A DNA stretch of 64,000 nucleotides, from NCBI GenBank assembly GCA_043808365.1, contig JAZDEZ010000007.1, positions 9,637-73,636 on the forward strand, given 5' to 3'. The notes below the pieces were generated by a model, which was not told where the DNA came from, did no database searches, and saw nothing but the letters and a program-made list of their open reading frames with translations. The translations under genes were made by a program, and so were the position numbers. This DNA is from Patescibacteria group bacterium (GTDB taxonomy: Bacteria > Patescibacteriota > Patescibacteriia > UBA10025 > JAHIVO01). The stretch's first letter is position 1. Every line of letters starts with the position of its first letter. Of the stretch, positions 2,743-28,708 are shown piece after piece.

Positions 2743-2870
2743 ATATCCAATTCTCTGATATCCAATATTCAATGAATGTCCAATTATCAAATGACTGATT
2801 TTCAAACCTTTGCGAATTATTGCATTGGACATTGGGATTTTATTGAATATTGGTAATTGGTAATTTGTCA
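2743..2870. repeat. CCAAT-word palindromic intergenic element, copy 1 of 3
   Basis: The left half carries repeated CCAAT words (atatccaattctctgatatccaatattcaatgaatgtccaat). The right half mirrors them as ATTGG words (attggacattgggattttattgaatattggtaattgg). Complementary pairs checked by hand: ccaatattcaat/attgaatattgg and gtccaat/attggac. The element fills the gap between the VirB4 stop and the next gene start. Confidence 0.7.
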
Positions 2871-2904
2871 TATCAGGATTTGTTTCGTATTTCGTGTTTT
2901 GAAA

Positions 2905-4803: not shown

Positions 4804-4806
4804 GGC

Positions 4807-5493: not shown

Positions 5494-5498
5494 AGATG

Positions 5499-5930: not shown

Positions 5931-5931
5931 A

Positions 5932-7533: not shown

Positions 7534-7647
7534 GGTTATAGGTTGAAAGTTGAAGGATGACGGTACGGTTGAAGGTCCTAGGAGACGTATAACTTACAAC
7601 TTTCCTCCATACTTTCTTCCAATAACCTTTAACTTTAACCCTATAAC
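7534..7647. repeat. long palindromic element overlapping the stop of the ATG-grasp gene (terminator-like)
   Basis: The left arm is ggttataggttgaaagttgaagg (7534-7556) and the right arm is cctttaactttaaccctataac (7626-7647). They are complementary at 19/22 positions by hand. The right arm covers the TAG stop at 7641-7643. Confidence 0.5.
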
Positions 7648-8588
7648 GTAGTGATCGGCCTTGACTGGACTATAAAAAACTTACCCTTTTCCAGCGCCCA
7701 CTCGACGTCCTGGGGGAATTTGTAGTGCTTTTCGATTCGCTCGCAGATATGCGCAATCTCAACTATCTGCTTGCCTGATAATTTCTGTTTTTCCTGCTTG
7801 TCTGTTGGTACCGCGACGGTCTTTGATCCGCCGCCTAGTTTCTGGATGATCATTTCTTTCTGGATACCAACGTTTACCTCGGCGATTCCGCCGGTTTTCT
7901 TGTCATACACATACGTATCTGGCGTGACCCGGCCGGACACGACTGATTCGCCCTGGCCCCATCCAGCTTCAATCACGATGTGGTTGCGATTTTTTGTCAC
8001 TGGGTGGGCGGTGAAGGCGATACCGGCGATTTCAGAATTGACCATTTTTTGGATAACCACAGCGACGGACACTTTTTGGTTATGTAATTTTTTTTCGATC
8101 CGGTAAAAAATCGCCCGCGGAGTAAAAAGCGACGACCAGCATGTCTTGACCGTTTCCAAGAGTTTCGTTTTCGTAACGAAGAGGTAGCTTTCTAACTCGC
8201 CGGCCCAGGAAGCGGCAGAAGAATCTTCTGCAGTGGCAGAAGATCGTACGGCGACGAACGGGGATTTTAATTTTGAAAACTCCTTCAATACTTCAATGCC
8301 AATATCTTTTGGGAATTTCGCGCTTTTAATCAGTTTGCGCAGATTTGCGGACGCAGTATCAACCGACTTGATATTTTTCGGATTGACCTTTTTTAATTCA
8401 GCCTCGATCTTTTTATCAATCCCAGTGGCTTTGACGAATTGGTCAAAAGAGCCGGCCAGCACCACGCAGCCGGGCGGCACCGGAATGCCAGCCTGAATCA
8501 TCTCGCCTAAACTGGCGCCCTTGCCGCCGGCGATGTCGACGTTCTTTTTACCGAGCTTTGTAAATGGGAGGACGAATTGGATGGGCAT
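7641..8588 (-). CDS. stand-alone PpsA/PPDK-type nucleotide-binding ATP-grasp domain protein (PPDK_N only)
   Basis: The track ORF is 7641..8636. The likely start is MPIQFVLPF at 8588. Motifs present: GGKGASLGEMIQAGIPVPPG, VAVRSSATAEDS, AGIAFTAHPVT and FPQDVEWA. The protein ends at ...FIVQSRPITTL with no swivel and no TIM-barrel domain. Confidence 0.85.
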   Translation of the reverse strand: MPIQFVLPFTKLGKKNVDIAGGKGASLGEMIQAGIPVPPGCVVLAGSFDQFVKATGIDKKIEAELKKVNPKNIKSVDTASANLRKLIKSAKFPKDIGIEVLKEFSKLKSPFVAVRSSATAEDSSAASWAGELESYLFVTKTKLLETVKTCWSSLFTPRAIFYRIEKKLHNQKVSVAVVIQKMVNSEIAGIAFTAHPVTKNRNHIVIEAGWGQGESVVSGRVTPDTYVYDKKTGGIAEVNVGIQKEMIIQKLGGGSKTVAVPTDKQEKQKLSGKQIVEIAHICERIEKHYKFPQDVEWALEKGKFFIVQSRPITTL

Positions 8589-8725
8589 AACATTTGTAAA
8601 AAATTTTAATACCTTAATTATACGTACAATCAGCAAGGATTGACAAGCTAAATTAAATATGATACTCTTCCATGAATCTGAAACTCACAAATAAATCCTT
8701 AACAAACAGAATAGGTAGGTAACTA

Positions 8726-9520
8726 ATGGATCATTCCCAATCGATTTTTGTCGAAGACAGTACTTGGGCTGAGGTCGAAGCATTCCTTAAAGCTCAGTGT
8801 AAAAATGCCATTGCCGTCTGGGGCTGGGGCGCTACGGAACAGCACGGCCCTCGGATGATCGAAGGTACCGACACTTTGATCGCTGATCATTTCATGCGCG
8901 TCATCGCGGACAACCGCCCGGTAATCGTTTTTCCGACAATGCCGATCGGCATGAGCCGGCACCACGAAGCTTTCGCGGGCACGATGTCGCTTTCTGCCGA
9001 AGCGGCTACTAGCGTCGCCTGTTGCGTTCTGCGGTCAATCTACCGGACCGGGATTAGGAAGCTCTTTGCTCTCATGGGGCATGGCGGCAACGTAGCCCCC
9101 TTCAACGGTGCCATTACGTCCCTCGGCAAGGAAATCGCCGGGCTGAAAATCACTGAACACCTTGACGGGCTCTTTTATGAGACCGAGGGCGAACTCGGCG
9201 ATCTCATCAACAACCATTTCGGCGAAAAGCCGTCCCATGCCGGCGCCCTCGAGGCGTCTGTCCTCTACGCCATTCTGGACCAGATGAAACTTGGGAGTGA
9301 AGTAAGTCGCCTGATGAATATCCCGTTTACTGACGGCATGGTCACTCCTGGTATCCATGGCCAGGGTACGCAGGGAAGTGACCCGATCGCCTTCCAGCGG
9401 ATGTTCCCCACTGGTTCCAAGGGTGACCAGCGCAAGGCCGACCTTGACTTTGGAATTCGCATCCTCGACCTGATGAGCGATAGACTCCTCGCTTACTTCG
9501 ACGAGTTCTCTAAATCGTAA
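8726..9520 (+). CDS. creatininase-family amidohydrolase
   Basis: 264-aa ORF with WGATEQHGPRMIEGTDTLIA ... MPIGMSRHHEAFAGTMSL ... LFALMGHGGN, matching the creatininase/ArfB-family pattern (EQHGP..TD; GHGGN). Confidence 0.7.
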   Translation: MDHSQSIFVEDSTWAEVEAFLKAQCKNAIAVWGWGATEQHGPRMIEGTDTLIADHFMRVIADNRPVIVFPTMPIGMSRHHEAFAGTMSLSAEAATSVACCVLRSIYRTGIRKLFALMGHGGNVAPFNGAITSLGKEIAGLKITEHLDGLFYETEGELGDLINNHFGEKPSHAGALEASVLYAILDQMKLGSEVSRLMNIPFTDGMVTPGIHGQGTQGSDPIAFQRMFPTGSKGDQRKADLDFGIRILDLMSDRLLAYFDEFSKS

Positions 9521-12603: not shown

Positions 12604-14178
12604 TCAATTTTTAATAATATTTCCCGATTGTAAATCCATGGTAACTTTATCTCCAGTCCTGAACTCTATAGTAGCATTTTTCGTACCAATAATGCAGGGT
12701 AATTTCAATTCACGCGAAATAATAGCTGCATGACAGGTCAGGCCGCCTTCATCTGTAACGATGGCTGTTGCCTTGCGCAACAATGGCACGAAATCAGGCC
12801 TGGTCATACTGGCCACTAGAATCCTGCCGGGCACAAACTTTTCTTTGTGCACATCTTTGACCACCTGCACTATGCCGCTGAACTTTTTTACTGGTGCACT
12901 GGCCACTTGGCCCGCGACCACGCCTTTTTTCAGCTGGAACTGGGATTGGATAGTATGGAAAATCTTCCGTGCCTGTTGGCCATAATATACTGTCGGAACG
13001 GCCGTTTGGCCTTTCTTTTCAATAAAATACACGGAGAGCGTCTGCCGGCCACGGATATGTTTTCTGCCTAGCTTTTTTCCATGTAACAATAAGTTCTTCA
13101 CATCAATTGGCAAGTAATAACGCACGTCATGCACCGGCAACCTAAACCGTTTTGCAATCTCCAGACAATACTGGTTCAAGCAGTCATTTCCGCGCAGCAT
13201 ATAGGTTTTCCGCTCGTCAATCCACTCGCCGAAAAACTGCACTAGCTTGAAGTGTTGCATTAAGCTTCGTGAAAAACGATATTTTTTTTCCAATTGTCGG
13301 TGTGTTTTGCTCAGCCGCTTTACTTTTGTTCGTAAACTTATCAATTCACGTGTAATTTCCTTATAGGATTTATACTTCACCTCCTCTTTTACTTTAGCAA
13401 AAAAATGTTCGGCCGAAAGCCGCAAAACAGTAGCGTACGAATTATTAGTCCAGTAGAACCTCCTACTTAAAACATTCAGCGCTTTCTGCCAATGCATATC
13501 GATGTCACAGATTTTCAACCGTAGCAACAGTCTTTTTCGCGGATAAAGTCCTAATGCGATCTGTAGAATTTCCTGACGTTCCTGTTCCATAAAACTAAGA
13601 TGGGCTGGCGTGGCCATCACTCTCGTAATCTCCAACACCTGGCCCTCTCGGATATTCGGTAATTCCTTACGCACTAAGGACTCTAACTCATATGCAGTGA
13701 AAACGTCGACGCATTCTGGCGTGACTACGTAGCGTGTGAAATCTAGATAATACTTCAAAAAAAGTTTATATGATTGCCATATCTGACGGTTTGATAGCTG
13801 TCTGGCCTGTCGTGAAAAAACCAAAGCGATATCGACGAATTTCTTATCAAAATCACTAAGACGGCGCTTCTTGACAAGGTACTGAGGGTCCCTTGTAATC
13901 TGGTTATAAATATACCAATATACTTTCGCTTTCTCATCCTGCGGGGTCAATTCATGAAAAAAATCTCCGGGCGTAGACACAAAAACGGACAACGTCAAAT
14001 ACTTCGGATGGAAGTACCGGCATTGCTCAACAAAACAGTGCAATGGATACATGACAAACTGATAAACCATGGGGGATTTTTCCTCCCACCAGGTATGGCG
14101 TTTGATGACTTTTAATAATTTCTGATAATTCATTTTTTCTTCATCAAGGCTCTGTTTTTCTAATAAACTAATTCCCAA
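12604..14178 (-). CDS. swivel-domain paralog 1 of 8: divergent N-terminal domain + C-terminal PEP-utiliser mobile (phosphohistidine) domain, no ATP-grasp
   Basis: 524 aa. The C-terminus is [49 protein letters not shown]. Internal islands are FYWTNNSY, EWIDERK and EIAKRFRLPVHDVRYYLP. Confidence 0.8.
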   Translation of the reverse strand: MGISLLEKQSLDEEKMNYQKLLKVIKRHTWWEEKSPMVYQFVMYPLHCFVEQCRYFHPKYLTLSVFVSTPGDFFHELTPQDEKAKVYWYIYNQITRDPQYLVKKRRLSDFDKKFVDIALVFSRQARQLSNRQIWQSYKLFLKYYLDFTRYVVTPECVDVFTAYELESLVRKELPNIREGQVLEITRVMATPAHLSFMEQERQEILQIALGLYPRKRLLLRLKICDIDMHWQKALNVLSRRFYWTNNSYATVLRLSAEHFFAKVKEEVKYKSYKEITRELISLRTKVKRLSKTHRQLEKKYRFSRSLMQHFKLVQFFGEWIDERKTYMLRGNDCLNQYCLEIAKRFRLPVHDVRYYLPIDVKNLLLHGKKLGRKHIRGRQTLSVYFIEKKGQTAVPTVYYGQQARKIFHTIQSQFQLKKGVVAGQVASAPVKKFSGIVQVVKDVHKEKFVPGRILVASMTRPDFVPLLRKATAIVTDEGGLTCHAAIISRELKLPCIIGTKNATIEFRTGDKVTMDLQSGNIIKN

Positions 14179-14292
14179 TTCTCAAATATCCAATATCTAA
14201 TGAATACCCAATGACTGAATTACTAATAACCAATTTGACATTTAGGAATTGTGATTTCATTGGTAATTGAAAATTGGATATTGGTAATTACC
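14174..14292. repeat. CCAAT-word palindromic intergenic element, copy 2 of 3
   Basis: The sequence runs cccaattctcaaatatccaatatctaatgaatacccaat ... cattggtaattgaaaattggatattggtaattacc. It shares ccaattctc....atccaatat..aatgaat..ccaat with copy 1. Confidence 0.7.
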
Positions 14293-14293
14293 A

Positions 14294-15760
14294 TCATATC
14301 TTCCTAACTATACCACTTGTAGCGTCAACTTCAATGCGATCACCGGTCTTGAAAACTTGTGTGGCAATTTTTGTGCCGACGATGCATGGCACGCCCAGCT
14401 CGCGCGCCACAATGGCGGCGTGGCAATTCAAACCGCCGTCATCAGTGACAATAGCCGCGGCCTTATGCATGGCCGGTACGTAATCAACAGTGGTCATTGA
14501 GGCGACCAGTACGTCTCCTTTCCTGATCAACGAGTTCGCTTCTCTCGCTGACATGGCACGTAACACCCGTCCACGCACCAGACCGTGGTTTGCGGGAATG
14601 CCTCGCACTTCAGCTTCTCGCCGTGCCCGGAGCTGGTCGAGTACCAACGCCTTCACCAACCGATAGGCATGACGGCCGGTAGCTTCCTGAAATTTATTCC
14701 CGTTTATGACCCACGTCAAGCCCGTTCGACGCGCCCGCAGCACCTTCCCGGACACCCGTTCCCCCCGCGAACACAATGAACGCACCTCATCATTCATATA
14801 ATAAACAATGCTAGCAAAAGGAATCCTGAAACGCCTGGACATCTCCTGTAATGCCTTGAATACGATTTGACTGCACCGCGTCTGGCCTTCTTTACGCCAG
14901 TCATGGAGCTGGGAAAATTGGTCGAGGATGGCGAAATACCGCCACAAAATTTTTCTCGGTAAATGGTACTTTCGGAATATCCGAGCCCGCTGCCGTAAAA
15001 TATCTGTTGCATAATTATCTATACGCCGTGCCATCGCACGCCTCTTGCCAGTTGACATTTTTTTTAACGGCCGTAAATCCCGACGCGCCTTTTCAGGCGT
15101 GATCACATGGCCGCCATCCCAACTCATCACGATCCAGTCAAGCCGGTTGAGTACATCTGTGAAATCCAACATTGAAACATATTGCTTACCGCTCAACCGC
15201 AATAACTCACGCTGATATTGCTGAACGACTGAAAGGTAGGCTGGCTTCATCATAGTGATCAAACCTCCTGGATCTGCAACCAAATGTCTATACGGCTCCA
15301 ATGCTTTGGCTAAAATCCCATCGAAATAATCATCAAAAAGATCGACCGTATATTCGGACAAGGTGATATTGTCCCAAAACATCCTCTTGCCTCGGGCATA
15401 TATTACATACAACTCCCTATCCGAAAGCCGCTCCGCGCGTAACATTTTATGCTTGAGGTCCGGCAGAGCAATGCGCATTTTATTCAGTGTCCGCTCAAAC
15501 TGCCTGACAAAACGAGAAAATACTCCCGGACGATGAATCCAGGCGCTGAACCAGCGGTGGAATTTCTTCTCCATCAGGTCCAGGTCTCTTGCCCACCAAA
15601 AATTATTGCCCACAAAAGACATCACCTCATAATGCCGAGAAAAATACGGATACTGCCTGACGTCACGCCTAAAAATCAGGTCAAGATAGGCAGAGATGCC
15701 CTGTGGGTAAACGCGGTCCCTAACGTAAACACGCCAATTGGTTTTTTTCACGTTTTTCAT
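14294..15760 (-). CDS. swivel-domain paralog 2 of 8
   Basis: 488 aa. The C-terminus is GDVLVASMTTVDYVPAMHKAAAIVTDDGGLNCHAAIVARELGVPCIVGT. The start overlaps the stop of paralog 3 by 4 nt. Confidence 0.8.
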   Translation of the reverse strand: MKNVKKTNWRVYVRDRVYPQGISAYLDLIFRRDVRQYPYFSRHYEVMSFVGNNFWWARDLDLMEKKFHRWFSAWIHRPGVFSRFVRQFERTLNKMRIALPDLKHKMLRAERLSDRELYVIYARGKRMFWDNITLSEYTVDLFDDYFDGILAKALEPYRHLVADPGGLITMMKPAYLSVVQQYQRELLRLSGKQYVSMLDFTDVLNRLDWIVMSWDGGHVITPEKARRDLRPLKKMSTGKRRAMARRIDNYATDILRQRARIFRKYHLPRKILWRYFAILDQFSQLHDWRKEGQTRCSQIVFKALQEMSRRFRIPFASIVYYMNDEVRSLCSRGERVSGKVLRARRTGLTWVINGNKFQEATGRHAYRLVKALVLDQLRARREAEVRGIPANHGLVRGRVLRAMSAREANSLIRKGDVLVASMTTVDYVPAMHKAAAIVTDDGGLNCHAAIVARELGVPCIVGTKIATQVFKTGDRIEVDATSGIVRKI

Positions 15761-17199
15761 CTGACGATTCTTACGATACCATGGTTAGCCCGCACCTCCA
15801 CGGTCATCCCGTCTTTTAACACTTTGGTGCCGACTTTTGTCCCGATGACACATGGGATGTTCAATTCACGGGCAACAATGGCTGCATGGCACGTGATGCC
15901 CCCTTCGTCAGTAACAATGGCGGAGGCTTTTTTTAAGGCAGGCATGAATTCCGGACGGGTCATGGAAGCCACAATCACGTCACCGCGACCGACTTTGGCA
16001 ATGGACAAAATATTTTTACAGACAATAACCCGTCCCATGGCCGTCCCGCCATTGGCTACTGTCCCATGGATGGCGCTCCCCGTAGAAGACGAGCGCTTCT
16101 CGACTTTACGCAGCAACGACACTAACCGCCGATACTCCCTACCGCTAGCCATATATTCATTGTTCCCTGCTAAAAGAACCAGGCATCCCCTCTGCCGAAC
16201 TATAAGCTCGTGCCGCAAACCAGCCACATCGTCAATCGATCGCAACCCGAACACCTCATTCACTCCCAACTGGTATATACATGATAATGGTAATCGTACC
16301 CGTCGGGCAACCTCTTTGGCCAATGTGTCCAAATAGGAAACATTCATAAGAATGTTCGCTTTACGGTCGTCTTGCCAAATGGTCGTGAAGTCAACCAAAC
16401 TGATCAACTCTTGGACATGCTTATTTAGTTTTAAACTGGCGATTAGAGCCTTCTTTTGCCGTTTTGCCTCATTGAACTTTTCCACATGCACACCGCGGGC
16501 CGCGTACAGCCGCCGCTGGAAATCTTTGACTGTCAGATGCTTCGGTCCAGTGTAACTGTTCTGGATCCAATAGTATCTCTTTACGTGGGACAACAGTCTT
16601 TTCTGTTGTTTGGATCGCGGCGATAAGGCTATTTGGTGCAACTCCGCTTCCTGTCGGCTTATAAAAGACGATTCTGACGGGGCGGTCAACGTGGTATACA
16701 GCTGGTTGAAATCCAGCCGCGGCCCGACTGCTTGCAGCAGGGCTATTTTGAACTCTTTTTCTACGGACATCCCAATCGACTCCACCAGATGCCCGACGCC
16801 GACCGTGTCGATCTGCGCCTGGAAGCTGGCTTTGAACCAAGCGACTAGCTCCTTTTCTGATAACTTTTTCAAATCTAACCGCCAAATTCTTACTTGTAAT
16901 GCAGAAACTGATTTTATCTTTGAATAATATAAACGCTTTACCTTTTCCAAATATTTCCTGTCGCGGATCATTTTGCGTCTCACGGTTTGCCAAATCTTTT
17001 TTATGTCCGTATTCAAATACGCCATTTCTCCATAACCGTTCTGGTAGTGGAATAAAAAAGCCGAATACCCAAAACCCAGATCCTTGGCCATGTGAATACC
17101 ACTAATGGCCGAGGGTCCTAAATACAGCGGCACGGCATTGAAACCCTGGATGTACCAATCTTTCTTAATGGACTTTTTTATTTTTTGCAGTGAAGTCAT
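15757..17199 (-). CDS. swivel-domain paralog 3 of 8
   Basis: 480 aa. The C-terminus is GDVIVASMTRPEFMPALKKASAIVTDEGGITCHAAIVARELNIPCVIGT. Internal islands are YYWIQNSY and IWQDDRK. Confidence 0.8.
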   Translation of the reverse strand: MTSLQKIKKSIKKDWYIQGFNAVPLYLGPSAISGIHMAKDLGFGYSAFLFHYQNGYGEMAYLNTDIKKIWQTVRRKMIRDRKYLEKVKRLYYSKIKSVSALQVRIWRLDLKKLSEKELVAWFKASFQAQIDTVGVGHLVESIGMSVEKEFKIALLQAVGPRLDFNQLYTTLTAPSESSFISRQEAELHQIALSPRSKQQKRLLSHVKRYYWIQNSYTGPKHLTVKDFQRRLYAARGVHVEKFNEAKRQKKALIASLKLNKHVQELISLVDFTTIWQDDRKANILMNVSYLDTLAKEVARRVRLPLSCIYQLGVNEVFGLRSIDDVAGLRHELIVRQRGCLVLLAGNNEYMASGREYRRLVSLLRKVEKRSSSTGSAIHGTVANGGTAMGRVIVCKNILSIAKVGRGDVIVASMTRPEFMPALKKASAIVTDEGGITCHAAIVARELNIPCVIGTKVGTKVLKDGMTVEVRANHGIVRIVR

Positions 17200-17204
17200 A
17201 TTGA

Positions 17205-18776
17205 TTATTTTTTCCTTTCAATCACCGTCACCACCCCGTGGTTGCCGTTGACCTCGACGATGTCGCCGTCATGCAGCACTTCAGTAGCGATCTTCGTTCC
17301 GATGACGCAGGGGATATTCAATTCTCTTGCCACAATGGCCGCGTGGCAGGTGACGCCGCCTTCATTCGTAACGATGGCAGCCGCCTTTTTCATGCCCATG
17401 ATGTAGTCCGGCCGGGTCATCACGGCTACCAGCACATCGCCGGGTTTTACTTTTTTCGTTTCGGTGGCGGACTTCACGATTTTAACCGGCCCGCGAGCCA
17501 CTCCCCGGTTTGCTGACAGGCCGCGGAAATCGTTGACCGCCTGCAACGATTTTTTCTCAAAAATCTTTTTAAACATGCCACGGGCATCCGAGGTAATGAC
17601 TTCATATTTGTCCTTGCCTATTTGCAGCCACAGGCATTTCTTCCACCGGTCCCGCGCTTCTTTGGGCGTCACAAACGGTTTTTTCGTAAACAGGGAATCG
17701 ACTTCCGGCGGCGCCAGATACTTCATTTCGTGTAATGTAAAGCCAAACCGTCTGCCGATTTCTTTCAGAATAATACTACCAAAATGCGTGGACCAGTAGG
17801 TCATTTTTTTCCGGTTATCCTGCCAATAGGTGAAATCCTCAGAAATTTCTAAGAGTACACGAATTTTTTTAGAAGGTTTCAGCTTTTTAATCAGCAACTG
17901 CTTTTCCCGCAAACTATTTTTTGGCGTATTTACAATCTGGTTAATTTGCTGGCCGATGTTAATGCCCGATTTGAACACTGCCTTCAGCTCCGCCACCCAT
18001 TTATCGACATCCAAATAATTGTTATGGACATAATTATTTTTACTCCAGAAATAATCCCGTTCCTGCTTTTCCAATAACTTAAAAATAACCGGATACCGGC
18101 GGACAATCTTCTGCAAGCTTCTAATCGGAAGCTTTCGGAAACTGCCGGCCAAAGCCGGTATTTTTTCAATCCTGAAAGCGATGCGCAACAAAGCTACTTC
18201 CGCCTCGTTGATGAACGAATGGTGCACCGGCGCGGTCAGCACGGAAAAATACCTGGACAATTGTTTTTCCAGTCCCCTGGATTTCAACAAAGTCATAAGC
18301 TCTTTTTGGATCAGGAAATCCGTACCAAGGGCGAAACCATCAATAATCGAACTTGAGGTAACGAACTTTAAATCGCGTTTAATATATTCATCGTACAACC
18401 TTACTAACGGCGCATTGTCCAATTGTTTCAGGTGATCCCAATCGGTCTCCAAGCACAAACCGTAAAATGCCGCTTCATCCTCTGACCAGCGCTTCATCAG
18501 TTTCTTGGTGAAATGGTTTTCGCGCATGGCCAAACCAACCAACCGTTTGGCAATACGGTCAATGTCCTCCTGGTCAATGTACCAGTCGGATTTGTCCTGC
18601 TCGAACAAACCAAAATGGCTGGTGGCGTGGCAGCCTTCTTTTCGCGCTTCCGGCGTCAGTTCAGCCATGGAAATGAGGAAAATAAAATGCGGTGCGCCGT
18701 CAAACCGTTGATGGTACCATTTTTTACGCTGGATATGCGGCAAATATCGTCTGAGTAACCCTTTTACTAAATGCAT
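17205..18776 (-). CDS. swivel-domain paralog 4 of 8
   Basis: 523 aa. The C-terminus is GDVLVAVMTRPDYIMGMKKAAAIVTNEGGVTCHAAIVARELNIPCVIGT. Internal islands are YFWSKNNY and YWQDNRK. Confidence 0.8.
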   Translation of the reverse strand: MHLVKGLLRRYLPHIQRKKWYHQRFDGAPHFIFLISMAELTPEARKEGCHATSHFGLFEQDKSDWYIDQEDIDRIAKRLVGLAMRENHFTKKLMKRWSEDEAAFYGLCLETDWDHLKQLDNAPLVRLYDEYIKRDLKFVTSSSIIDGFALGTDFLIQKELMTLLKSRGLEKQLSRYFSVLTAPVHHSFINEAEVALLRIAFRIEKIPALAGSFRKLPIRSLQKIVRRYPVIFKLLEKQERDYFWSKNNYVHNNYLDVDKWVAELKAVFKSGINIGQQINQIVNTPKNSLREKQLLIKKLKPSKKIRVLLEISEDFTYWQDNRKKMTYWSTHFGSIILKEIGRRFGFTLHEMKYLAPPEVDSLFTKKPFVTPKEARDRWKKCLWLQIGKDKYEVITSDARGMFKKIFEKKSLQAVNDFRGLSANRGVARGPVKIVKSATETKKVKPGDVLVAVMTRPDYIMGMKKAAAIVTNEGGVTCHAAIVARELNIPCVIGTKIATEVLHDGDIVEVNGNHGVVTVIERKK

Positions 18777-18902
18777 AGGGTGGATAATTTATGCAATAAT
18801 TATAGCTTTTTTTACACAAATTACCATTAAAGGTTTGCAAGGCTTTAGCTTTTCTAAAACCTGTCATGGAATTTAAAACACGGAATCGGCCTGTTTGCCA
18901 GC

Positions 18903-20402
18903 TTACTTTCTGATAATTCTAACTGAACTATGATTGGCGTTTACCTCAATCAAATCACCATCCTTTAACACTTTCGTGGCATTGCCGGTGCCGACCACGC
19001 AAGGTATGCCCAGTTCGCGGGAAACAATGGCCGCGTGGCAGGTTACCCCGCCCTCGTCAGTAATAACCGCCCCGGCTTTTCTCATGGCCGGCACGTACTC
19101 CGGACTGGTCATGGACGCCACTAAAATATCTCCCGGCTTGACTTTTTCAATACCGTCAATGCCCTGGACCACTTTAACGATGCCGACCAGCTTACCTGAT
19201 GACGCAATTACTCCTTCCAAAAATGCGGGCGCTTTTTTAATCCGTTCTAGGCGGGAGTTTAATAAATTCCTTGCTTTAACCCCCAATAATAGGTCAACCT
19301 TATCACCGTGCCAATAGGCTAACGAGTGTCGATAGCGTTTTTTCAGAACATCAATGCCAACTTTTTTTTCATTAACTAACGCGGCGGCAAGCTCATTCGG
19401 CAGATAATATTGGATCAACTCCCGGCTTACGCCAAACCGCCGGCTGATTTCCTCAAAAAGCGCCGAGATGTAGTAATGCGCCTGGGTGAATATTTCCTTT
19501 TTATAATCAAGCAAAAAAGCCGCTTGGCGCATGCATCGAAAAAGTTTCCTGTGATAGCCGTCAAGGCGCAGCCTGTCCTCGCATTGCTTCTGTTCGGCCA
19601 CAAGTTTGGTAAAATATTCTTTGCTTTTTTCCAGGTCGTTCTCGATATTTCTTTCTCTGATAATTTTCCCTAAAACCTTTTTGAAATAAGCCGCGTCCCA
19701 TGTGTATACGCCGTAATCATACGGCACCCAGAAATACCGATCAACATGCCTCTTGATTGACTTATTTAAATCTTTTTTTTTGCTGGTTATCGCACGATGC
19801 GCGATCCGCAACAGTTCATCCTCTTCTCTTTTGACAAACGACTTGATCGGAGAAGCAATTAGCAAATTATAATATCGCAAAGCCTCACACTTATCAGGTA
19901 CTATTTTTTTTAAATGCTTTTCAAGATATCCGGCCAGTATGTCATTCAGGCTTATGACCATCGGCTCGCTGTAAAGGTAGGCAGCTTCGTATCGGCGCAA
20001 ATATCCCTGAAACAGGCGGAATAATTGATGATTTGACGCTCGGCTGAAACCAATCCTGACAATTCCGCTGGCAAATTTCAATAATTGAGGGGCTAATTTT
20101 TTAAATTTGTTGATAGTCTTTTTGATAATCCCGGGATCTCTTTTAATCATTTGGAAACTCATTTGGGAGACTGCTTTTAATCCGCTGGCGGAAGCGTACC
20201 AGAACATTGTCCCGTTTTTATATGAGGCTATAGTGGGCCCAAAGCTCCTACCGGCGAATAATTTTTTCATTGAATAAGCGTAGACCCTGCCGATTACGTA
20301 AGCATTGGGTAAAAAATGGATTTGCTGCTTCTTTTGCACTAGTAAATAGTCTTGTTTCATACCGTCCACTCTCACATTGTATATTTGAAACTTATAGACC
20401 AA
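18903..20402 (-). CDS. swivel-domain paralog 5 of 8
   Basis: 499 aa; the start is uncertain, with an alternative MKQDYLL at 20360. The C-terminus is [49 protein letters not shown]. Confidence 0.8.
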   Translation of the reverse strand: MVYKFQIYNVRVDGMKQDYLLVQKKQQIHFLPNAYVIGRVYAYSMKKLFAGRSFGPTIASYKNGTMFWYASASGLKAVSQMSFQMIKRDPGIIKKTINKFKKLAPQLLKFASGIVRIGFSRASNHQLFRLFQGYLRRYEAAYLYSEPMVISLNDILAGYLEKHLKKIVPDKCEALRYYNLLIASPIKSFVKREEDELLRIAHRAITSKKKDLNKSIKRHVDRYFWVPYDYGVYTWDAAYFKKVLGKIIRERNIENDLEKSKEYFTKLVAEQKQCEDRLRLDGYHRKLFRCMRQAAFLLDYKKEIFTQAHYYISALFEEISRRFGVSRELIQYYLPNELAAALVNEKKVGIDVLKKRYRHSLAYWHGDKVDLLLGVKARNLLNSRLERIKKAPAFLEGVIASSGKLVGIVKVVQGIDGIEKVKPGDILVASMTSPEYVPAMRKAGAVITDEGGVTCHAAIVSRELGIPCVVGTGNATKVLKDGDLIEVNANHSSVRIIRK

Positions 20403-20506
20403 CTCATGGTTCGAATCGCAAATGTCCGTTTTATAAAAAAATTCTCTGCTGCCTTTTCACAATCCTATTTATGGTCCGCCAGAGGCGGACTCCGCGAGGT
20501 GCAATG

Positions 20507-20542
20507 TTACAATTTCTTTACAACACCTCGCTCCGCATCCAC
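20507..20542 (-). pseudogene. 3'-terminal stub of a lost swivel-domain paralog
   Basis: The minus strand reads gtg gat gcg gag cga ggt gtt gta aag aaa ttg taa, which is VDAERGVVKKL*. Paralog 8 ends VDAERGVVRKL*. This stub and its 3' flank (20473-20543) align at roughly 80% with 25390-25465 by eye. Confidence 0.6.
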
Positions 20543-20609
20543 CCCGCACCACTGAAGGGTGCGGGGTTGCCGTGAATTCTTTAGTGGTTCAGGGCACCGA
20601 CAAACACAA

Positions 20610-20672
20610 TTAATGTTTTAATTTCCGCACAACGCCTTGAGTAGCGTCAACCTCCACCCGGTCTCCGTCTGC
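20610..20672 (-). pseudogene. second 3'-terminal stub of a lost swivel-domain paralog
   Basis: The minus strand reads [20 protein letters not shown]. Intact copies end ...[20 protein letters not shown]. No upstream homologous body is present. Confidence 0.6.
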
Positions 20673-20758
20673 CGATTTCGTCACCAAAAACAAACGAAGT
20701 GCAGTTTGAGGTGGTGCGAAATCGAGCATCCCGACCCGCCACTGGGCGGGGAGGGATC

Positions 20759-22252
20759 TCACTTTTTTAACTTTTTAATAATACCTTTAGTCGCATCTAC
20801 TTCAACTCTGTCCCCATCCTTTAACACTTTCGTGGCCATTTGGGTGCCGACCACGCAGGGGATTTTCAATTCGCGGGAAACAATAGCCGCGTGGCAGGTC
20901 AGGCCGCCTTCATCGGCGATGATAGCCTTAGCCCGGCGGATGGCGCTGATGTATTCCGGAGCAGTCATAGTAGTGACTAAGATGCGGCCCGGGGGGAAGC
21001 GCCGCAGATCGGCGTGGTGCCGCACCAGAAAAACGCGGCCCCTGACCGGCTGGCCAGCTGAAAAAACAACCAAACCCTCCAGCTCCCTGCCTTTGGTAGC
21101 GGCTCGGCGCTGCCAATAGCGACGGCTGATTATTTGCGCGGCCCGCCCGGTGAAGGAGTGAAAAACTCTGCTGTTATAGTGCACGACAAACAGGCGCCGG
21201 CGCGATTTTAGCTCCTTAATCAGGCCTGCAGAGGGATGAAGGTTTATTTCCCGGTACCAGGCCATATGGTAGAGCGCCGGCGCCACTTGGTTGCGCCTGG
21301 AGAATTCATGCACAAATAAATCTAAATAATGAAGATAACAGAAAATCAAGCCTTTCCGCTGGTCCTGCCACCAGATGCAATACGCTAAACCATCACTGAT
21401 TTTTTTTATTAGCTTTTTCCGGCGCACCAGGGACAACGCCTGGCGTTGGTTAGTTTGGGCGAACGCCAGCTGACGGTAAATCTCCGATATCTGGCGGGCT
21501 GGACTTAATTTTTTCTTCATAAAATGCCTGATCCGGCCCAAGAAATGTGCCTCTGGCATGACCCGGACCGCTCCGTAACTATTCCCAATCCAAAAATATT
21601 TCCGGCAATGCGCCGTTAACCGGTGTTGAAAATCTTTTTTGCCGTAACGGCTGGCGACTTTTAACAAAGAAATTTCCTCCTCCTGGTAAAAAGACGGCTT
21701 CATCGGCGCGCTCAGGTGCGAGAGCGCGAGCATCTGCTTCTGTCCAGCCAGGCCTTCTTCGGCTAATTCCCGTTTCAAAATCGCCTCACCGCCGTAAGCG
21801 CTTATTTCCGGAACAACGCCGGGCTCCCAAAATTTAAAGATTAACCTGTTCAAGAGCCGCCAATCGCGCTCTAACGCCGCCCCTGACATTTTCCTCAAGG
21901 TCAGAGCGTCAAATTTCCCGCAAAAGGAATAAAGCCGGCTGACGCGCAGCTGCCACAGCTTGAAAAATTTCCGCCGCTTCCCGGTTAAAATTATCTTTCT
22001 GAACATCTCGCTGCCTGTTTTTTGCAACGGCTCCAATTCATTAACGAAAAGCATCCTGCCGCCCCTGAAAATCTCGTAGCCCGGGGGCCAAACATAGTGG
22101 TGAGGCCGGCCGGGATAATCGTGAAAAATCGACAGCCAAGCGTCGACATTTATCAAATACCCCGGGATAGGCCCCCAGCGGAAAAGCGGTTCTTTTAAAT
22201 CATGCATAATATCTATATTTTCCATTATTAAACGTAAAAAATCAAGCACCAT
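20759..22252 (-). CDS. swivel-domain paralog 6 of 8
   Basis: 497 aa; the true start is possibly MHDLKEPLF at 22207. The C-terminus is [49 protein letters not shown]. Internal islands are YFWIGNSY and WWQDQRK. Confidence 0.8.
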
Positions 22253-22438: not shown

Positions 22439-23731
22439 TTATATCATTATTTCGTTTAACATTTTCTTGTCCTCCTCCATCTGTGCGATCAAATCTTCCT
22501 TGGACTGGAATTTTTTCACCTCGCGGATTTTCTCCAGCACCTCCACCCGTACCTCTTGGTTATGCAGTTCACCGTTGAAATTGTGGAGATACAATTCCAG
22601 CGATAATTTGTCATTGAAAGTTTCCTTGAAACCGAAATGCAGGAGCGCCGGATAAATTTTCCCATCAGCGGCTACTTTCGCGGTATAAATGCCATGGGTT
22701 AAATCCAAATCAGTCTTGTCCAGGTTCACCGTCGGCGTGCCCAAACTTTTGCCCCGGCCTTCGCCGGCAATAGCCTTGGCCGTAAAATTGACGGTTTTGA
22801 CCTTCCCGCGACGGACCACCATATACATAGCGCCAATCAAAACAATAGCGGCGCCAATCTGCGTGGCATTCAGCGTATTGTGGTTGAAAAAATAATCCAG
22901 AATCACCGCGGAGAACGGCCAGAACAGCTCGCAAATCGTGGCGACGGAAGCGCTTACCCGGCGCAAGCCAAAGTAGTAGAAGAACATGGCCACCGCGCCG
23001 CTGGTAAAGACAATCAAGGCGAACATCCACCACTGTGTACTGGAAACGATTGAATACTGGCTGAAACCGCTGGAAAAAATCAGATACACGCCAGTAATGA
23101 TAATGGTCAGCCCGAAACGTAATGCGGCCGTGCTCTTGAAATCCAAGTGATTAACCAGCCGCTTGCCGAACACCGTGGACGAACCGAAAGCAAATGCCGC
23201 TACAATTGCATAAAACGCGGCGCTATGCCAGAAATCGATGTCGCTCAGCACAAAGCCGTGTTTGCCAAATGCAAGAAAATAAGCGGCTACTACCGCCAGG
23301 CCCGCCCATGCATAAAACTGCTTGGAAAGTTTTTCCTTGAGCAACAAACGGGCTATTAATAGCGCAAATAGCGGCTGGAGTTTTTGCAAAATAACTACCG
23401 TGGCAAAGGTGACTACGCCGTCCATCGCGGAAAAAAATGCCTGGGTGATGGCCAATGTCCCCAGAAACCCGCCGAAAAAACTGACCCACATCGCCGCGCC
23501 CCAGCTTTTCCTGTCTAAATTCTTCAGCTGTCGCAGTCTGGGGATTAAAAATGGCACCAGTACGATAAATCCAAGCAAATGCTCGGTAAAAACGACCAGG
23601 CCGGCCGGCAAACTGTACAATTTTGGCCGGATGAACGTGCCGTCCAGGCTCCAGAACAAAGCGGCCAGCATTATTGCTAATGCTCCAACAAGCATGGTTG
23701 TATTGAATTTCTTGTTTAGCATCTGAGTCAT
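22439..23731 (-). CDS. fusion protein: 10-TM EamA/DMT-type transporter + C-terminal riboflavin kinase domain
   Basis: 430 aa. About 310 aa are polytopic with two EamA-like halves. The C-terminal part then reads GEGRGKSLGTPTVNL...HGIYTAKV...LELYLHNFNGELHNQEVRVEVLEKIREVKKFQSKEDLIAQMEEDKK. This matches riboflavin-kinase motifs (GrG..lG.PT.N; GvY; E.h...f.g.lY...i.v.f...iR.e.kF.s...L..qi..D). Confidence 0.75.
   Translation of the reverse strand: MTQMLNKKFNTTMLVGALAIMLAALFWSLDGTFIRPKLYSLPAGLVVFTEHLLGFIVLVPFLIPRLRQLKNLDRKSWGAAMWVSFFGGFLGTLAITQAFFSAMDGVVTFATVVILQKLQPLFALLIARLLLKEKLSKQFYAWAGLAVVAAYFLAFGKHGFVLSDIDFWHSAAFYAIVAAFAFGSSTVFGKRLVNHLDFKSTAALRFGLTIIITGVYLIFSSGFSQYSIVSSTQWWMFALIVFTSGAVAMFFYYFGLRRVSASVATICELFWPFSAVILDYFFNHNTLNATQIGAAIVLIGAMYMVVRRGKVKTVNFTAKAIAGEGRGKSLGTPTVNLDKTDLDLTHGIYTAKVAADGKIYPALLHFGFKETFNDKLSLELYLHNFNGELHNQEVRVEVLEKIREVKKFQSKEDLIAQMEEDKKMLNEIMI
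22442..22804 (-). other. riboflavin-kinase domain portion of the fusion ORF
   Basis: This is the last ~121 codons of ORF 22439..23731. The GEGRGKSLGTPTVNL motif is encoded around 22725-22770. Confidence 0.65.
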
Positions 23732-23746
23732 TGGTACATTGTAATG

Positions 23747-25309
23747 TTATTTTAACTTTTTTACAATCCCCTTTGTCGCGTCTACTTCAACCAAATCGCC
23801 GTCTTTCAAAACTTGTGTGGCGATTTTCGTGCCGATGATGCAGGGTTTTTTCAGTTCCCGGCTGACGATGGCCGCGTGACAGGAAATACCGCCCTCATCA
23901 GTGACAAATGCCGAAGCGACCTTCATGGCTGGCACATAGTCTGGCATGGTCATGCTAGTGACGAGGATATCCCCAAGTTTAACTTTAAAAGATTCCTTGC
24001 TAGAATGGAGTATTTTGACCGTGCCGCGGACGATCCCAATATATGCTGGCATACCTTTAATCTCAGACACGTTTTTAGTCGCGCCTTCAATATTATTCCG
24101 TATCATGCCTGCTAGCTGGAATGGAAGCAGGTATATTTTATTTTTATCAACAATAAATCCGTGGCCTCTTTTTCGACCAGTAATTGGCAACCTTTTAAAG
24201 AATGGCTTGGATAGAGCATCTAATGTCTCAAAATAGTACAATGCCATAATATCCTTCACGTTTATCGTCTTTGCGATACGCCACAAGATACTACGGATAC
24301 GGTACGCCCCTTCGATGATTACTTCGCGGCGGCGCAGTCGAAAATACGGCAAATCGCTTGCCAAACGGATCAAGGTGCGTGTTGATGAAGAAAACCTTAG
24401 TTCCCGCATCAGTTTCAGTTTTTCCTGCTTGGCCCTTTTTTCTTCCTTCATAAATATCGCATAACGCCTACATGGTTTATTTTTTACCATCTGGCGCAAT
24501 TCTACAATAAAATGCTTCAACGGCTCAATCTTCATTATCAAATAACTGTCTTCAGCCCAAGCGAATAAGTGAAAGATTTTTTCAACTTTTCGCTTGAGCT
24601 TGTTCAATGGAATCCTGCTCCACGATTTTTTTAAAATGTCCCGACGAAAGTTCGGTTGTTTAGCAATTTCCGCAGCTAAGACCATCATCGCTCTGTGTCG
24701 ACCTTCCAGTCCGGAAACACGAAATGGTCGGATCAGTTTCTGCAATATTTCCTGATATGCCGGCGAGGTCGGGAGGACAATCTTACCAAGCGCCTGTTCG
24801 ATGGTCTTGATAATCCAATCCTCCACGCCCAACGGCGGCCAAAGCGCACCCGCCACCATTTGTGATTCACGGACAAACACACTAAAAGCCCGGCGTAACT
24901 CATGGGGTGCATCTGTAGCCCCGTGCTGTTGTGCAACTCGGTCCATAATGACCAAATACCTAATGCACTCTTTATCGATTTCACGCAACATGCGTTTCAG
25001 AAATGAAATACTCCTACGGCACCGGTCTACCAGCAAATCGCGTAATTTAAAAAAATCCCCTTCCTCTGCATAGACATCTTCATTGAGTACTATTTGCACA
25101 CGCAAACAGTTATCATAGGAAAAGCGCGGATTTTTTAAAACTGCTCCCGTCCTGATCAGTGAAGTAAAAAGTGGAGAATTCGGCCGCTTTACGGCCTTGT
25201 AGAATTTTTTATCCTTCACAAGCTTGCGGAATACTGCTGGTACGACGTGATATCTCCTACCTTCAAAAGAATAAATTTTGAAAAATGGTAATTTGTTACT
25301 TGAAGTCAT
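23747..25309 (-). CDS. swivel-domain paralog 7 of 8
   Basis: 520 aa. The C-terminus is [49 protein letters not shown]. Confidence 0.8.
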   Translation of the reverse strand: MTSSNKLPFFKIYSFEGRRYHVVPAVFRKLVKDKKFYKAVKRPNSPLFTSLIRTGAVLKNPRFSYDNCLRVQIVLNEDVYAEEGDFFKLRDLLVDRCRRSISFLKRMLREIDKECIRYLVIMDRVAQQHGATDAPHELRRAFSVFVRESQMVAGALWPPLGVEDWIIKTIEQALGKIVLPTSPAYQEILQKLIRPFRVSGLEGRHRAMMVLAAEIAKQPNFRRDILKKSWSRIPLNKLKRKVEKIFHLFAWAEDSYLIMKIEPLKHFIVELRQMVKNKPCRRYAIFMKEEKRAKQEKLKLMRELRFSSSTRTLIRLASDLPYFRLRRREVIIEGAYRIRSILWRIAKTINVKDIMALYYFETLDALSKPFFKRLPITGRKRGHGFIVDKNKIYLLPFQLAGMIRNNIEGATKNVSEIKGMPAYIGIVRGTVKILHSSKESFKVKLGDILVTSMTMPDYVPAMKVASAFVTDEGGISCHAAIVSRELKKPCIIGTKIATQVLKDGDLVEVDATKGIVKKLK

Positions 25310-25341
25310 TTTTTAAAATTCATATTAAGTATAATGAGACA

Positions 25342-25371
25342 TTAATTTAATTTTTTAACAACGCCCTTATT
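25342..25371 (-). pseudogene. possible very short 3' stub of a swivel-domain paralog
   Basis: The minus strand reads aat aag ggc gtt gtt aaa aaa tta aat taa, which is NKGVVKKLN*. Family C-termini read TKGIVKKLK* and [10 protein letters not shown]. With only ~10 codons, chance resemblance is possible. Confidence 0.35.
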
Positions 25372-25426
25372 CGTCCTCCATAGGCGCCCGTCCGCCTCTG
25401 GAGGAGACTCCGCGAGACGTAATGAT

Positions 25427-26845
25427 TTATAATTTTCTTACGACGCCTCGCTCCGCATCCACCTCCACCCGGTCGCCATTTTTTAATACGCTCATCGCCT
25501 TATAAACGCCTATGACGCACGGTATTTTGAGCTCGCGCGAGACAATGGAAACGTGGGCGGTAATGCCGCCTTCCTCGGCCACTATAGCCGCCGCTTTTTT
25601 CATAATAGGCACGAAATCAGGGGTAGTGTTGTTAACCACGAGGATATTGCCTTTTTTGAATTTAGGAAAATCTTTCTGCGACCTGACAATACGCACTCGC
25701 CCACGGGCCAAGCCAGGGGAAGCCACGCGCCCCGACTTGAGCGAATGGCTAGTCTGGTAAAAACGAGATAGGAAATATTTTGCTTTTTTACCGTAAAAAA
25801 TTTCAAAACGCCCTTTATATGAATAGTACACATACAAGCCTTTTCTCTTTATTAAAACGTCTTGATCAGGCATCTGCCCGCTGGAAATCATGGTAAAAAC
25901 TTCCTCCACGCTCATCCGCCACATATCCCGGATCCTGACGCCGTATTTTTTCGACATGGCGGCAAAAACAGGCATGAAATAAAAATTCGCCAGATTTACC
26001 TGCAATTTGACGGCGTCCTTCAGGTATGGCATCATCGCTAACAATTTTCGTAACGGCCAGTGCCGACGTTTAACTAACATCCTAGCCTTATCCCGACGGC
26101 GTAAGCTTTGTTTTCGCTCAATATGCATTTCAGCCAGCACCTTTTCCGGCTGCCTGGAGCCCCAATACTTGATTTGCTGGATATAATAATTCAGCGGACG
26201 AGGCGCTTCATTATGCCAACCCATGGTACAAGCGCCAAATTGCCGATATATTTTTTTGGCCGAAGCGATAAGCTTCGTTTTTTTTCGGTCGTGCCGCCAG
26301 TGTAATGCGGCATGCAATATGGCCTCCTTTTCCTGCATAATGACCGAACTTTTTTCGGGGAATGACAGTGCCTGTATGATTTCCGCCGAAAGATAGCCAC
26401 AATGGTCGGCCATAAATTCCTGCAAAGCGGCATCCGTCTTTCTCAATATATTGATTCCCCTGATCGGCAGATACCTGGCCTGAAGATAGCATAAAAACAA
26501 ACAGCCCAATACCGAAGGCCGGACTTCGCCATGCCAATTATCAACCTCACTTTTTAGCGCTTTGACCGTCCGGCACGACTCCACATACTGCCGAGTAAGC
26601 CAGGCCGGGTGATTCCAATACCGTAAAAATATTTTTCTAAAAGGGCGCCGAAGGTTGTCTTTTGGATGGAAAAAATTAATGCGTTCTTTCCGGGAAACGC
26701 CGATGTAATTCGATTTCGGCAGGTATTTATCGCTATACGACACCGCATGATCAGCCGTACTCAATAATAGAAAATACCCCGGCCTGTCCGCGAAATCAAG
26801 ACAGTCCGTTTCCTGTAAGTATTTTTTACCCCAAATTTTCATCAT
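25427..26845 (-). CDS. swivel-domain paralog 8 of 8 (most divergent swivel motif)
   Basis: 472 aa. The C-terminus is [49 protein letters not shown], with the His retained. The start ATGATG overlaps the TGA of the upstream mini-ORF. Confidence 0.8.
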   Translation of the reverse strand: MMKIWGKKYLQETDCLDFADRPGYFLLLSTADHAVSYSDKYLPKSNYIGVSRKERINFFHPKDNLRRPFRKIFLRYWNHPAWLTRQYVESCRTVKALKSEVDNWHGEVRPSVLGCLFLCYLQARYLPIRGINILRKTDAALQEFMADHCGYLSAEIIQALSFPEKSSVIMQEKEAILHAALHWRHDRKKTKLIASAKKIYRQFGACTMGWHNEAPRPLNYYIQQIKYWGSRQPEKVLAEMHIERKQSLRRRDKARMLVKRRHWPLRKLLAMMPYLKDAVKLQVNLANFYFMPVFAAMSKKYGVRIRDMWRMSVEEVFTMISSGQMPDQDVLIKRKGLYVYYSYKGRFEIFYGKKAKYFLSRFYQTSHSLKSGRVASPGLARGRVRIVRSQKDFPKFKKGNILVVNNTTPDFVPIMKKAAAIVAEEGGITAHVSIVSRELKIPCVIGVYKAMSVLKNGDRVEVDAERGVVRKL

Positions 26846-28015: not shown

Positions 28016-28630
28016 TCAATAACCAATTATTAACCTCCAATTGAAATATTGGTACGGTATTTTAGAGTATTTTCTCGGTAATTCCGTTTTAACCGGGTTG
28101 CGTTTGATGTATTGGATGACTGTTTCTAAATATTTATGCGTTGAAACGATCCGGGCGTAAAACCGTGTGTGCCAAATTGAAAACGGGATAGCGTACTGGA
28201 CGCGAATACGCTTGATAAAATATGATTTGATGCAATACATAAATTGAGAAATAGTATACTCCTTCGTGGGCGTGGGTTTCGTGGTCACCGCAGGCGCAGA
28301 GACCTGCGGTGGGAGGGCTATGGAATGTCGCTCATCGGTTAAACTATCGCGGGTCCCCGCCTGCCGAAGCCGTGCGGCGGGCAGGTCTGCGCCCGCGATG
28401 GGACTCCAAACCGCACCTGCGTTCCCATCCATTCGTTGCACCAACACATGCACATGGTCTGGCATTATTTGGTACGCCAAAATACCAAAACGCTTCAATC
28501 GGCCGGCATTAAACATAATTTCCGATAATAACTCCGCCATCTTTTCATCCTCGAACAACCCGAACCCCACCCGGGTACGGAATGTCACGAAATACGGGCA
28601 TTCATTTTGATATATTCTTCGTTGGGTCAT
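28016..28630 (-). CDS. IS200-like / RAYT-like Y1 HUH transposase
   Basis: The likely start is MTQRRIYQNE at 28630. The HUH motif is MPDHVHVLV, preceded by CPYFVTFRT. The C-terminal part is IKSYFIKRIR...WHTRFYARIVSTHKYLETVIQYIKRNPVK. The central GC-rich segment is an unusual insert. I identified no IS ends. Confidence 0.7.
   Translation of the reverse strand: MTQRRIYQNECPYFVTFRTRVGFGLFEDEKMAELLSEIMFNAGRLKRFGILAYQIMPDHVHVLVQRMDGNAGAVWSPIAGADLPAARLRQAGTRDSLTDERHSIALPPQVSAPAVTTKPTPTKEYTISQFMYCIKSYFIKRIRVQYAIPFSIWHTRFYARIVSTHKYLETVIQYIKRNPVKTELPRKYSKIPYQYFNWRLIIGY
28348..28397. repeat. GC-rich structured element inside the transposase ORF (partner at 44508-44558)
   Basis: The sequence is cgcgggtccccgcctgccgaagccgtgcggcgggcaggtctgcgcccgcg. 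The inner stem is gcctgcc/ggcagg(t) and the outer stem is cgcggg/cccgcg. It shares gggtcccc(c)gcctgcc-N10-cggcgggcagg with the intergenic copy. Confidence 0.55.
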
Positions 28631-28708
28631 AACAAAAACTTCCCGTGGTTTTATTGGGAAGATTGATATGTTTAGGTTATAACGACATCGGGGAATAGTC
28701 AAATAACC

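Follow-up and report, generated by a model that had tools for sequence, protein, structure and literature searches.

The stretch of DNA analysed here, hereafter the window, covers 64,000 nucleotides of contig JAZDEZ010000007.1 (138.6 kb) from a Patescibacteria group bacterium. On its minus strand, at positions 22439..23731, lies a single open reading frame (ORF) that runs from an ATG to a stop codon and encodes 430 residues, in which an ImpX-type permease of the drug/metabolite transporter (DMT) kind is fused to a riboflavin kinase domain; this architecture is borne out by Pfam, by the NCBI protein and by an AlphaFold2 (AF2) model. The NCBI gene call is identical, with the product named merely 'EamA family transporter [Patescibacteria group bacterium]'. 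The permease half, residues 1–307 (22811..23731, minus strand), comprises ten transmembrane (TM) helices in two EamA repeats with predicted cytoplasmic termini, as judged from hydropathy, the counts of lysine plus arginine, the identity to ImpX and the DMT fold. A short basic linker, RRGKVKT (residues ~308–314; 22790..22810, minus strand), leads from TM10 to the first strand of the kinase in the AF2 secondary structure, and the riboflavin kinase domain itself (Flavokinase, PF01687), assigned by Pfam, PDB sequence matches and fold, occupies residues 315–430 and, together with the stop codon, positions 22439..22789 of the same strand. Upstream, the sequence and the ORF coordinates leave a spacer of 15 nt (23732..23746, minus strand) to the stop codon of the preceding gene, which belongs to the array of paralogues described below.

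Both halves are recognized well above the Pfam cutoffs: EamA matches the 430-residue protein in two stretches (E 1.2e-30, 107 bits; cutoff 28.2 bits), the EamA/DMT permease region extending over residues ~11–307, and Flavokinase matches residues 314–428 (E 7.6e-27, 94.4 bits; cutoff 19.6 bits). Weak NCBIfam matches to YedA and YddG were also seen. A FAD_syn domain was sought in the fusion protein with Pfam and no match was found; moreover, the NCBIfam RibF models align with the C-terminal kinase part alone and far under their cutoffs, from which we conclude that the fusion has no FMN adenylyltransferase domain. The 46 window ORFs scanned (gene-like ORFs of at least 120 residues, overlapping opposite-strand ORFs being skipped) likewise yielded neither FAD_syn nor any gene of the rib pathway or of other flavin functions. 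The AF2 model, built on 51 family members, is of good quality (pLDDT 88, pTM 0.87), with the TM10 helix ending at residue 307 and the first kinase strand beginning at residue 315. In Foldseek comparisons, its membrane part matches the DMT transporters YddG (5i20, target TM-score 0.75) and LicB (7paf, 0.81), and its C-terminal domain, a six-stranded barrel, matches human riboflavin kinase (1q9s, target TM-score 0.70, rmsd 2.0 Å).

The fusion is widespread. All 120 of the best homologues retrieved by a search of 5.8 billion proteins carry both Pfam domains, the 8,000 candidates scored include at least 1,414 proteins that pass E 1e-5, and in a scan limited to one genome for each species, a relative is encoded by at least 471 genomes. 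We fetched 80 species-level loci with flanks of ±10 kb: in 65 of these, counting one (L040) in which the contig ends within the ORF, the fusion is one continuous ORF, and in three further loci (L041, L057 and L080) both halves are present, separated by a frameshift. The resulting set of 68 fused sequences and loci is the denominator for all residue, linker and neighbour counts given here. The source labels are mostly Patescibacteria, or candidate phyla radiation (CPR) bacteria, namely, Falkowbacteria, Saccharibacteria, Paceibacterota, Magasanikbacteria and Komeilibacteria, with a few labelled DPANN archaea; many record titles reading 'uncultured Gammaproteobacteria' look like placeholders and were not relied on. 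One Falkowbacteria genome carries a tandem pair of fusion genes (L020, 9992–12587).

The kinase domain closely resembles characterized riboflavin kinases. Its PDB sequence matches include RibF of Thermotoga maritima (9e-15) and human riboflavin kinase, RFK (1e-6), and in the alignment to the latter, Thr334 and Asn336 fall on Thr34 and Asn36 of the PTAN sequence (the PTxN motif), and Glu379 on the catalytic Glu86. Thr334, Tyr349, Glu379 and Arg403 are invariant in 68/68 fused sequences, and Asn336 is retained in 66/68. By these sequence criteria, the domain is apparently an active riboflavin kinase of the bacterial/eukaryotic type (PF01687, EC 2.7.1.26).

With respect to the membrane part, hydropathy indicates ten membrane segments, and the distribution of positive charge gives their orientation: as a mean of 51 sequences, lysine plus arginine residues number 18.9 in the N-terminus, the even-numbered loops and the stretch following TM10 taken together, versus 3.75 in the other loops. 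By the positive-inside rule, both termini, and hence the kinase, are placed in the cytoplasm, in agreement with the N-in/C-in topology known for 10-TM DMT proteins. The distance between the two domains is also constrained: 6–9 residues lie between residue 307, at the end of TM10, and residue 316 (both exclusive) in 66 of the 68 sequences, and a linker this short means that the kinase must sit directly beneath the permease. An earlier note on this DNA, made by reading the sequence, had described one ORF combining a 10-TM permease of two EamA halves with a C-terminal riboflavin kinase domain, and had found no FAD synthetase in the ORF or the window; on each of these counts it was right. The motifs that it quoted are genuine, aligning with the GxGRG flap, the PTAN motif and the catalytic Glu86 of the human enzyme, and the domain that it regarded as a kinase on the cytoplasmic side is indeed recognized as such by profile, by structure comparison and by charge bias.

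The closest documented relative of the permease is ImpX. This transporter was predicted from FMN riboswitches, and the Fusobacterium nucleatum protein complements an Escherichia coli ribB mutant, which is a riboflavin auxotroph, on low riboflavin (PMC4418817); in a 2015 survey, it was seen solely in riboflavin-prototrophic Proteobacteria, Firmicutes and Fusobacteria (PMC4418817). We located the ImpX ORF by using the published cloning primers for F. nucleatum impX (PMC4418817) as exact DNA patterns: both match locus L084, the forward primer at 4672–4691 and the reverse primer, with zero mismatches, at 6049–6069, and they flank an FMN riboswitch (4921–5036) and a single 299-residue ORF with two EamA repeats, which is, therefore, ImpX. 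Over 284 residues, this ORF shares 41% identity with the window protein (204 bits, E 2e-67); it scores 249–260 bits on a profile of the permease half of the fused family, and shares with the window permease the signature stretches LQKLQP, FGSxTVFGKR and YYFGLR. Given 41% identity to an importer that has been tested, the permease half is, by sequence, a member of the ImpX family.

Unfused orthologues of ~315–330 residues, 51–54% identical, occur in Cloacimonadota, Marinisomatota, Fidelibacterota and one Patescibacteria genome (L045). In three Cloacimonadota chromosomes, the permease gene is the last of an operon with the order FMN riboswitch, ribD, ribE, ribBA, ribH, permease, and it begins 18 nt past ribH. 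In the Patescibacteria genome, the permease (3726–4670) ends at a stop directly after TM10 and has no kinase, and the usual downstream neighbour then follows. A neighbour-joining tree rooted on ImpX places the unfused copies among the fused ones, a placement that is only suggestive because the tree carries no support values.

A further line of evidence is the attachment of a different kinase to the same permease family. An exhaustive profile search of 1.84 billion representatives returned 256 clusters at E<=1e-30; the best 150 of these are mostly unfused ImpX-like proteins of ~300 residues, with ~17 full-length fused clusters among them. In one cluster (P0142, 428 residues), the permease is joined not to PF01687 but to PF01982, the CTP-dependent riboflavin kinase of archaea; characterized kinases of that family indeed use CTP (PMC5397151). 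The form is archaeal and rare, being found in four clusters (P0142 and P0270–P0272) that are 47–49% identical to each other, and the contig that carries P0142 (L088; fusion at 8001–9287) also encodes the archaeal RNase P protein Rpp14. It further bears a gene for an IS200-like Y1 transposase (568–930). The PF01982 fusion thus shares with that in the window the permease family, the C-terminal position of the kinase and the enzymatic step, and differs in the Pfam family of the kinase; it is apparently a second fusion, independent of the first. Two kinase families that carry out one enzymatic step have become attached to the C-terminus of one permease family, and this is strong evidence that selection has acted on the coupling of riboflavin uptake to phosphorylation. 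Another variant of 574 residues (P0177) carries a C-terminal HAD-family hydrolase on an ImpX-like permease, and could be a flavin phosphatase coupled to transport.

We consider it likely, from comparative sequence evidence, that the fusion is a single polypeptide that imports riboflavin and phosphorylates it to FMN, and thereby traps it. The earlier note had proposed such a physical coupling of riboflavin import to FMN formation, and the proposal has gained from the homology to ImpX and the orthologues in rib operons, and further from the PF01982 fusion, the positive-inside topology and the conserved catalytic residues. We infer the substrate, the direction of transport and the activity of the kinase, as well as any kinetic coupling or channelling between the halves and the reliance of the organism on external riboflavin. 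In the mechanism that we envisage, the N-terminal ImpX-family permease of ten helices would carry riboflavin across the membrane; its last helix would end in the cytoplasm, to be followed after 6–9 residues by an ATP-dependent kinase of the bacterial type that appears catalytically intact; and riboflavin leaving the permease would be phosphorylated to FMN by the tethered kinase at the expense of ATP. Uptake would effectively be one-way, since the charged FMN is presumably no longer a substrate of the permease. The fusion would, thus, make metabolic trapping obligatory, with an outcome resembling group translocation.

Several observations weigh against this proposal, or at least limit what can be built on it. 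The riboswitch-operon evidence comes from one lineage only, the three related Cloacimonadota, and the unfused copies in Marinisomatota have neither a riboswitch nor rib genes nearby, their neighbours being dnaA, a cupin gene and umuDC. Within CPR, no FMN riboswitch was found in the three fused loci scanned, nor around the operon in the window even at E<=1; hence, regulation provides no independent support there. In fact, no Rfam family reaches its threshold anywhere in the 64-kb window, the scan at the gathering threshold agreeing with an inspection by eye that had seen no FMN riboswitch upstream of the gene. Control by FMN riboswitches does vary among the known transporter families (PMC4418817), and the missing riboswitch, therefore, does not exclude membership of the ImpX family. 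Finally, Arg35, Glu50, Asn194 and His195, all invariant in the permeases of the fused family, differ in ImpX, and the substrate range could accordingly differ in detail.

A more intimate version of the proposal can be entertained, albeit as a rather doubtful one: the kinase would dock on the cytoplasmic mouth of the permease and take riboflavin directly from it, and its catalytic or product state would gate transport. The conserved linker of 6–9 residues and the fusion of a second kinase family at the same position would fit such a coupled translocator, which, if true, would amount to an ATP-driven group translocation of a vitamin that is independent of the phosphotransferase system (PTS).

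The surroundings of the importer–kinase gene suggest a different kind of elaboration. The gene is embedded in an array, as the earlier note had it. This array consists of paralogues containing PEP-utilizers domains, six of them downstream of the fusion gene and two upstream, and every one shares its strand. The two upstream genes (23747..26845, minus strand; 520 and 472 residues) each encode a substrate domain like that of rifampin phosphotransferase (RPH) and a PEP-utilizers phosphohistidine swivel domain, as assigned by PF00391, by alignment and by a PDB profile match, and the six downstream genes (12604..22252, minus strand; 480–524 residues) belong to the same family by Pfam, alignment and AF2. 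The eight paralogues (~470–525 residues) are 21–26% identical to one another; each joins a divergent helical N-terminal part to the conserved phosphohistidine domain, and an ATP-grasp domain is missing. The match of their profile to rifampin phosphotransferase extends past the His domain (5fbs, residues 626–866), and an AF2 model of the paralogue at 20759..22252 (pLDDT 77) has as its best fold match rifampin phosphotransferase (5fbu, E 3.8e-13). A stand-alone PPDK_N ATP-grasp gene (7641..8636, minus strand; PF01326, E 7.5e-99) is likely to be the shared ATP-binding partner of the array and, as such, is context outside the fusion protein. Stand-alone PPDK_N genes also accompany the arrays of four other loci (L022, L032, L034 and L057), and, judging from its domains, array plus PPDK_N resembles an RPH/PEP-synthase-like phosphotransferase that has been split and that has many acceptor modules as alternatives. 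Relatives of the array proteins are found fused to PPDK_N (P0495) or to UDP-GlcNAc 2-epimerase (P0417 and P0499), and HAD hydrolases close the arrays of two loci (L091 and L092).

The spacer of 15 nt upstream of the fusion gene is too short to hold a riboswitch or a separate promoter region, and implies co-transcription with the array gene that precedes it. The fusion gene may belong with the split RPH-like array to an operon-level module that phosphorylates what the cell scavenges; this idea, in which fusion, array and ATP-grasp protein would together act on scavenged small molecules, adds to the importer–kinase model without contradicting it. Consistent with it, the fusion gene lies inside or beside RPH-like arrays in 12/68 fused loci, where it is always co-directional, often has overlapping reading frames and occurs in proteins with identities down to 51–59%; some of the array-linked loci are labelled archaeal, and stand-alone PPDK_N recurs in these clusters. 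On the other hand, no array lies within 10 kb of the fusion in the remaining 56 of the 68 loci, and three arrays of other genomes, located by starting from the array, lack a fusion gene over the same distance. Many of the array-linked cases, in addition, group into two or three clades when placed on the permease tree, and are not, therefore, independent events. An obligatory link between array and fusion is, thus, rejected, and the linkage is recurrent but facultative. Moreover, the commonest neighbours elsewhere are genes of the methionine cycle and genes like those of type IV secretion systems (T4SS), and the presence of an IS200-like gene next to the array points to a variable region. On balance, we regard a common module as unlikely. 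In three of the array-linked loci (L001, L009 and L044), labelled Woesearchaeota, Nanoarchaeota or 'archaeon', a PF01687 fusion that is 56–57% identical to the window protein lies within RPH-like arrays, which suggests that the gene, perhaps with its array, has been transferred between CPR bacteria and DPANN archaea, or else that the sequences have been mis-binned.

Beyond the arrays, the genes that recur beside the fusion encode AdoHcy hydrolase, a PfkB kinase, SAM synthetase, an unknown protein of ~500 residues, and T4SS-like PrgI and TraG; none of the neighbours in the 68 loci is flavin-related. A neighbour cluster that had appeared to be 'RibD-like' consists of small proteins of the dCMP-deaminase type. 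In many other CPR loci, the fusion, AdoHcy hydrolase, PfkB kinase and SAM synthetase genes are followed by the same PrgI and TraG; hence, the array of the window appears to have been inserted into an otherwise conserved gene order. In the window, a type IV secretion-like set (1043–7191, minus strand) comprises a T4SS pilin, a TraG/VirB4-type ATPase and PrgI. The IS200-like Y1 transposase gene (28016–28702, minus strand) adjoins the array, and another lies inside the array of L091 (11544–12107). PADLOC models of defence systems gave no match to the fusion or array proteins, and a scan for promoters and terminators yielded nothing informative. Farther away, the window holds two giant ORFs, one of 1,727 residues with no Pfam match (30050–35233, minus strand) and one of 3,076 residues with dockerin and CBM_4_9 domains (35256–44486, minus strand), in a stretch whose GC content of 0.54–0.57 is above that of the rest of the window; and a leucyl-tRNA synthetase of 1,251 residues (48718–52473, minus strand) contains an alpha/beta-hydrolase (Ser_hydrolase) insert at ~451–635 and a second hydrolase-like stretch further on.

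Two readings would assign the fusion a role other than that of a catalytic riboflavin trap fed by import. In the first, the kinase-like domain would mainly sense a flavin or a nucleotide and thereby gate the permease, or the substrate would be a riboflavin analogue, such as roseoflavin, a deazaflavin precursor or lumichrome. There is precedent for the reuse of riboflavin kinase domains as regulators, for example, in the archaeal kinase/regulator RbkR (PMC5397151), and the several invariant permease residues that are absent from ImpX could be read in the same way. Nevertheless, we hold this to be improbable: the retention of catalytic residues in 66–68 of the 68 sequences would be unexpected in a pure sensor, the second kinase family at the same position argues for selected riboflavin kinase chemistry, and the riboswitch on the orthologues is of the FMN class.

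In the second reading, the protein would be a flavin exporter, releasing FMN or riboflavin that the cell has made or processed, for example, for extracellular electron shuttling or for supply to a host. Many DMT/EamA proteins are exporters, the weak NCBIfam matches are to YedA and YddG, and co-transcription of the Cloacimonadota permease with biosynthesis genes is a layout that is possible for an exporter. However, FMN riboswitches shut down their genes at high FMN levels, a behaviour that fits an importer but not an overflow exporter. Furthermore, it is not obvious what a kinase fused to the cytoplasmic end would do in export, the window has no rib genes among the ORFs scanned, and ImpX, to which the permease is homologous, supports the uptake of riboflavin by an auxotroph (PMC4418817). 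Export is, therefore, very improbable. The weakest explanation, that separate permease and kinase genes were joined by a frameshift error in sequencing or assembly, an eventuality that the earlier note had raised and to which the three split loci and the Patescibacteria permease ending after TM10 might lend some colour, is effectively refuted by the continuous architecture of all 120 best matches from many independent assemblies and of the ORF in 65/80 species-level loci, together with the conserved length of the linker: the fusion is a real single ORF.

Both parts of the protein are known families, and public databases already contain fused proteins, listed with generic names. A full-text literature search, the coverage of which leaves out most subscription journals, found no paper in which the fusion is described or tested; common as it is in CPR, the fusion has apparently been neither described nor tested before. 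CPR bacteria and DPANN archaea are believed to depend on other cells for their living, and few of their routes for cofactor uptake are known. If the importer–kinase reading is correct, this family offers a concrete route for vitamin B2, namely, one protein that would both import riboflavin and make FMN, in hundreds of species-level genomes. It also extends the ImpX family, earlier seen only in riboflavin producers, well past the previously known phyla, and it supplies a natural gene-fusion argument for ImpX function, the fusion having apparently arisen twice and with two kinase families. The annotation 'EamA family transporter' could then give way to a specific function, and the protein would provide a clean system in which to ask whether the energetics of transport change once a carrier is covalently coupled to a kinase.

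The kinase shares its fold with the C-terminal module of RibF and with monofunctional riboflavin kinases (T. maritima, 1mrz; Corynebacterium ammoniagenes, 5a88; human, 1nb0/1q9s), and their catalytic motifs, namely, the Gly-rich flap, PTxN, GxY, the catalytic Glu and an Arg near the C-terminus. Unlike bifunctional RibF, it is not preceded by an N-terminal FMN adenylyltransferase (FAD_syn) domain and, unlike both RibF and the soluble kinases, it is tethered to a membrane transporter. RibN, the precedent named in the earlier note, is likewise reported to be an EamA/DMT riboflavin importer. It is a characterized riboflavin transporter of Proteobacteria (PMC4418817); nonetheless, the documented closest relative of the window permease is ImpX, with which it has in common the 10-TM architecture of two EamA repeats. 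Whereas ImpX is a stand-alone protein of ~300 residues under an FMN riboswitch, the window protein adds a C-terminal kinase and its gene has no riboswitch, even though unfused orthologues of it are riboswitch-controlled in the manner of ImpX; and in contrast to the ImpX proteins surveyed, the fusion occurs in Patescibacteria and in metagenome-assembled genomes labelled DPANN archaea.

Metabolic trapping by separate transporter and kinase pairs is well established, as in RibM/PnuX with flavokinase and PnuC with NadR, and there, as in the PTS and as we propose for the fusion, the substrate is phosphorylated on arrival and cannot leave. In the RibM/PnuX and PnuC systems, the transporter and the kinase are separate proteins, whereas here, an ATP-dependent kinase is covalently joined to the carrier; and where the PTS relies on a phosphorelay from phosphoenolpyruvate, the fusion would instead employ an ATP-dependent small-molecule kinase.

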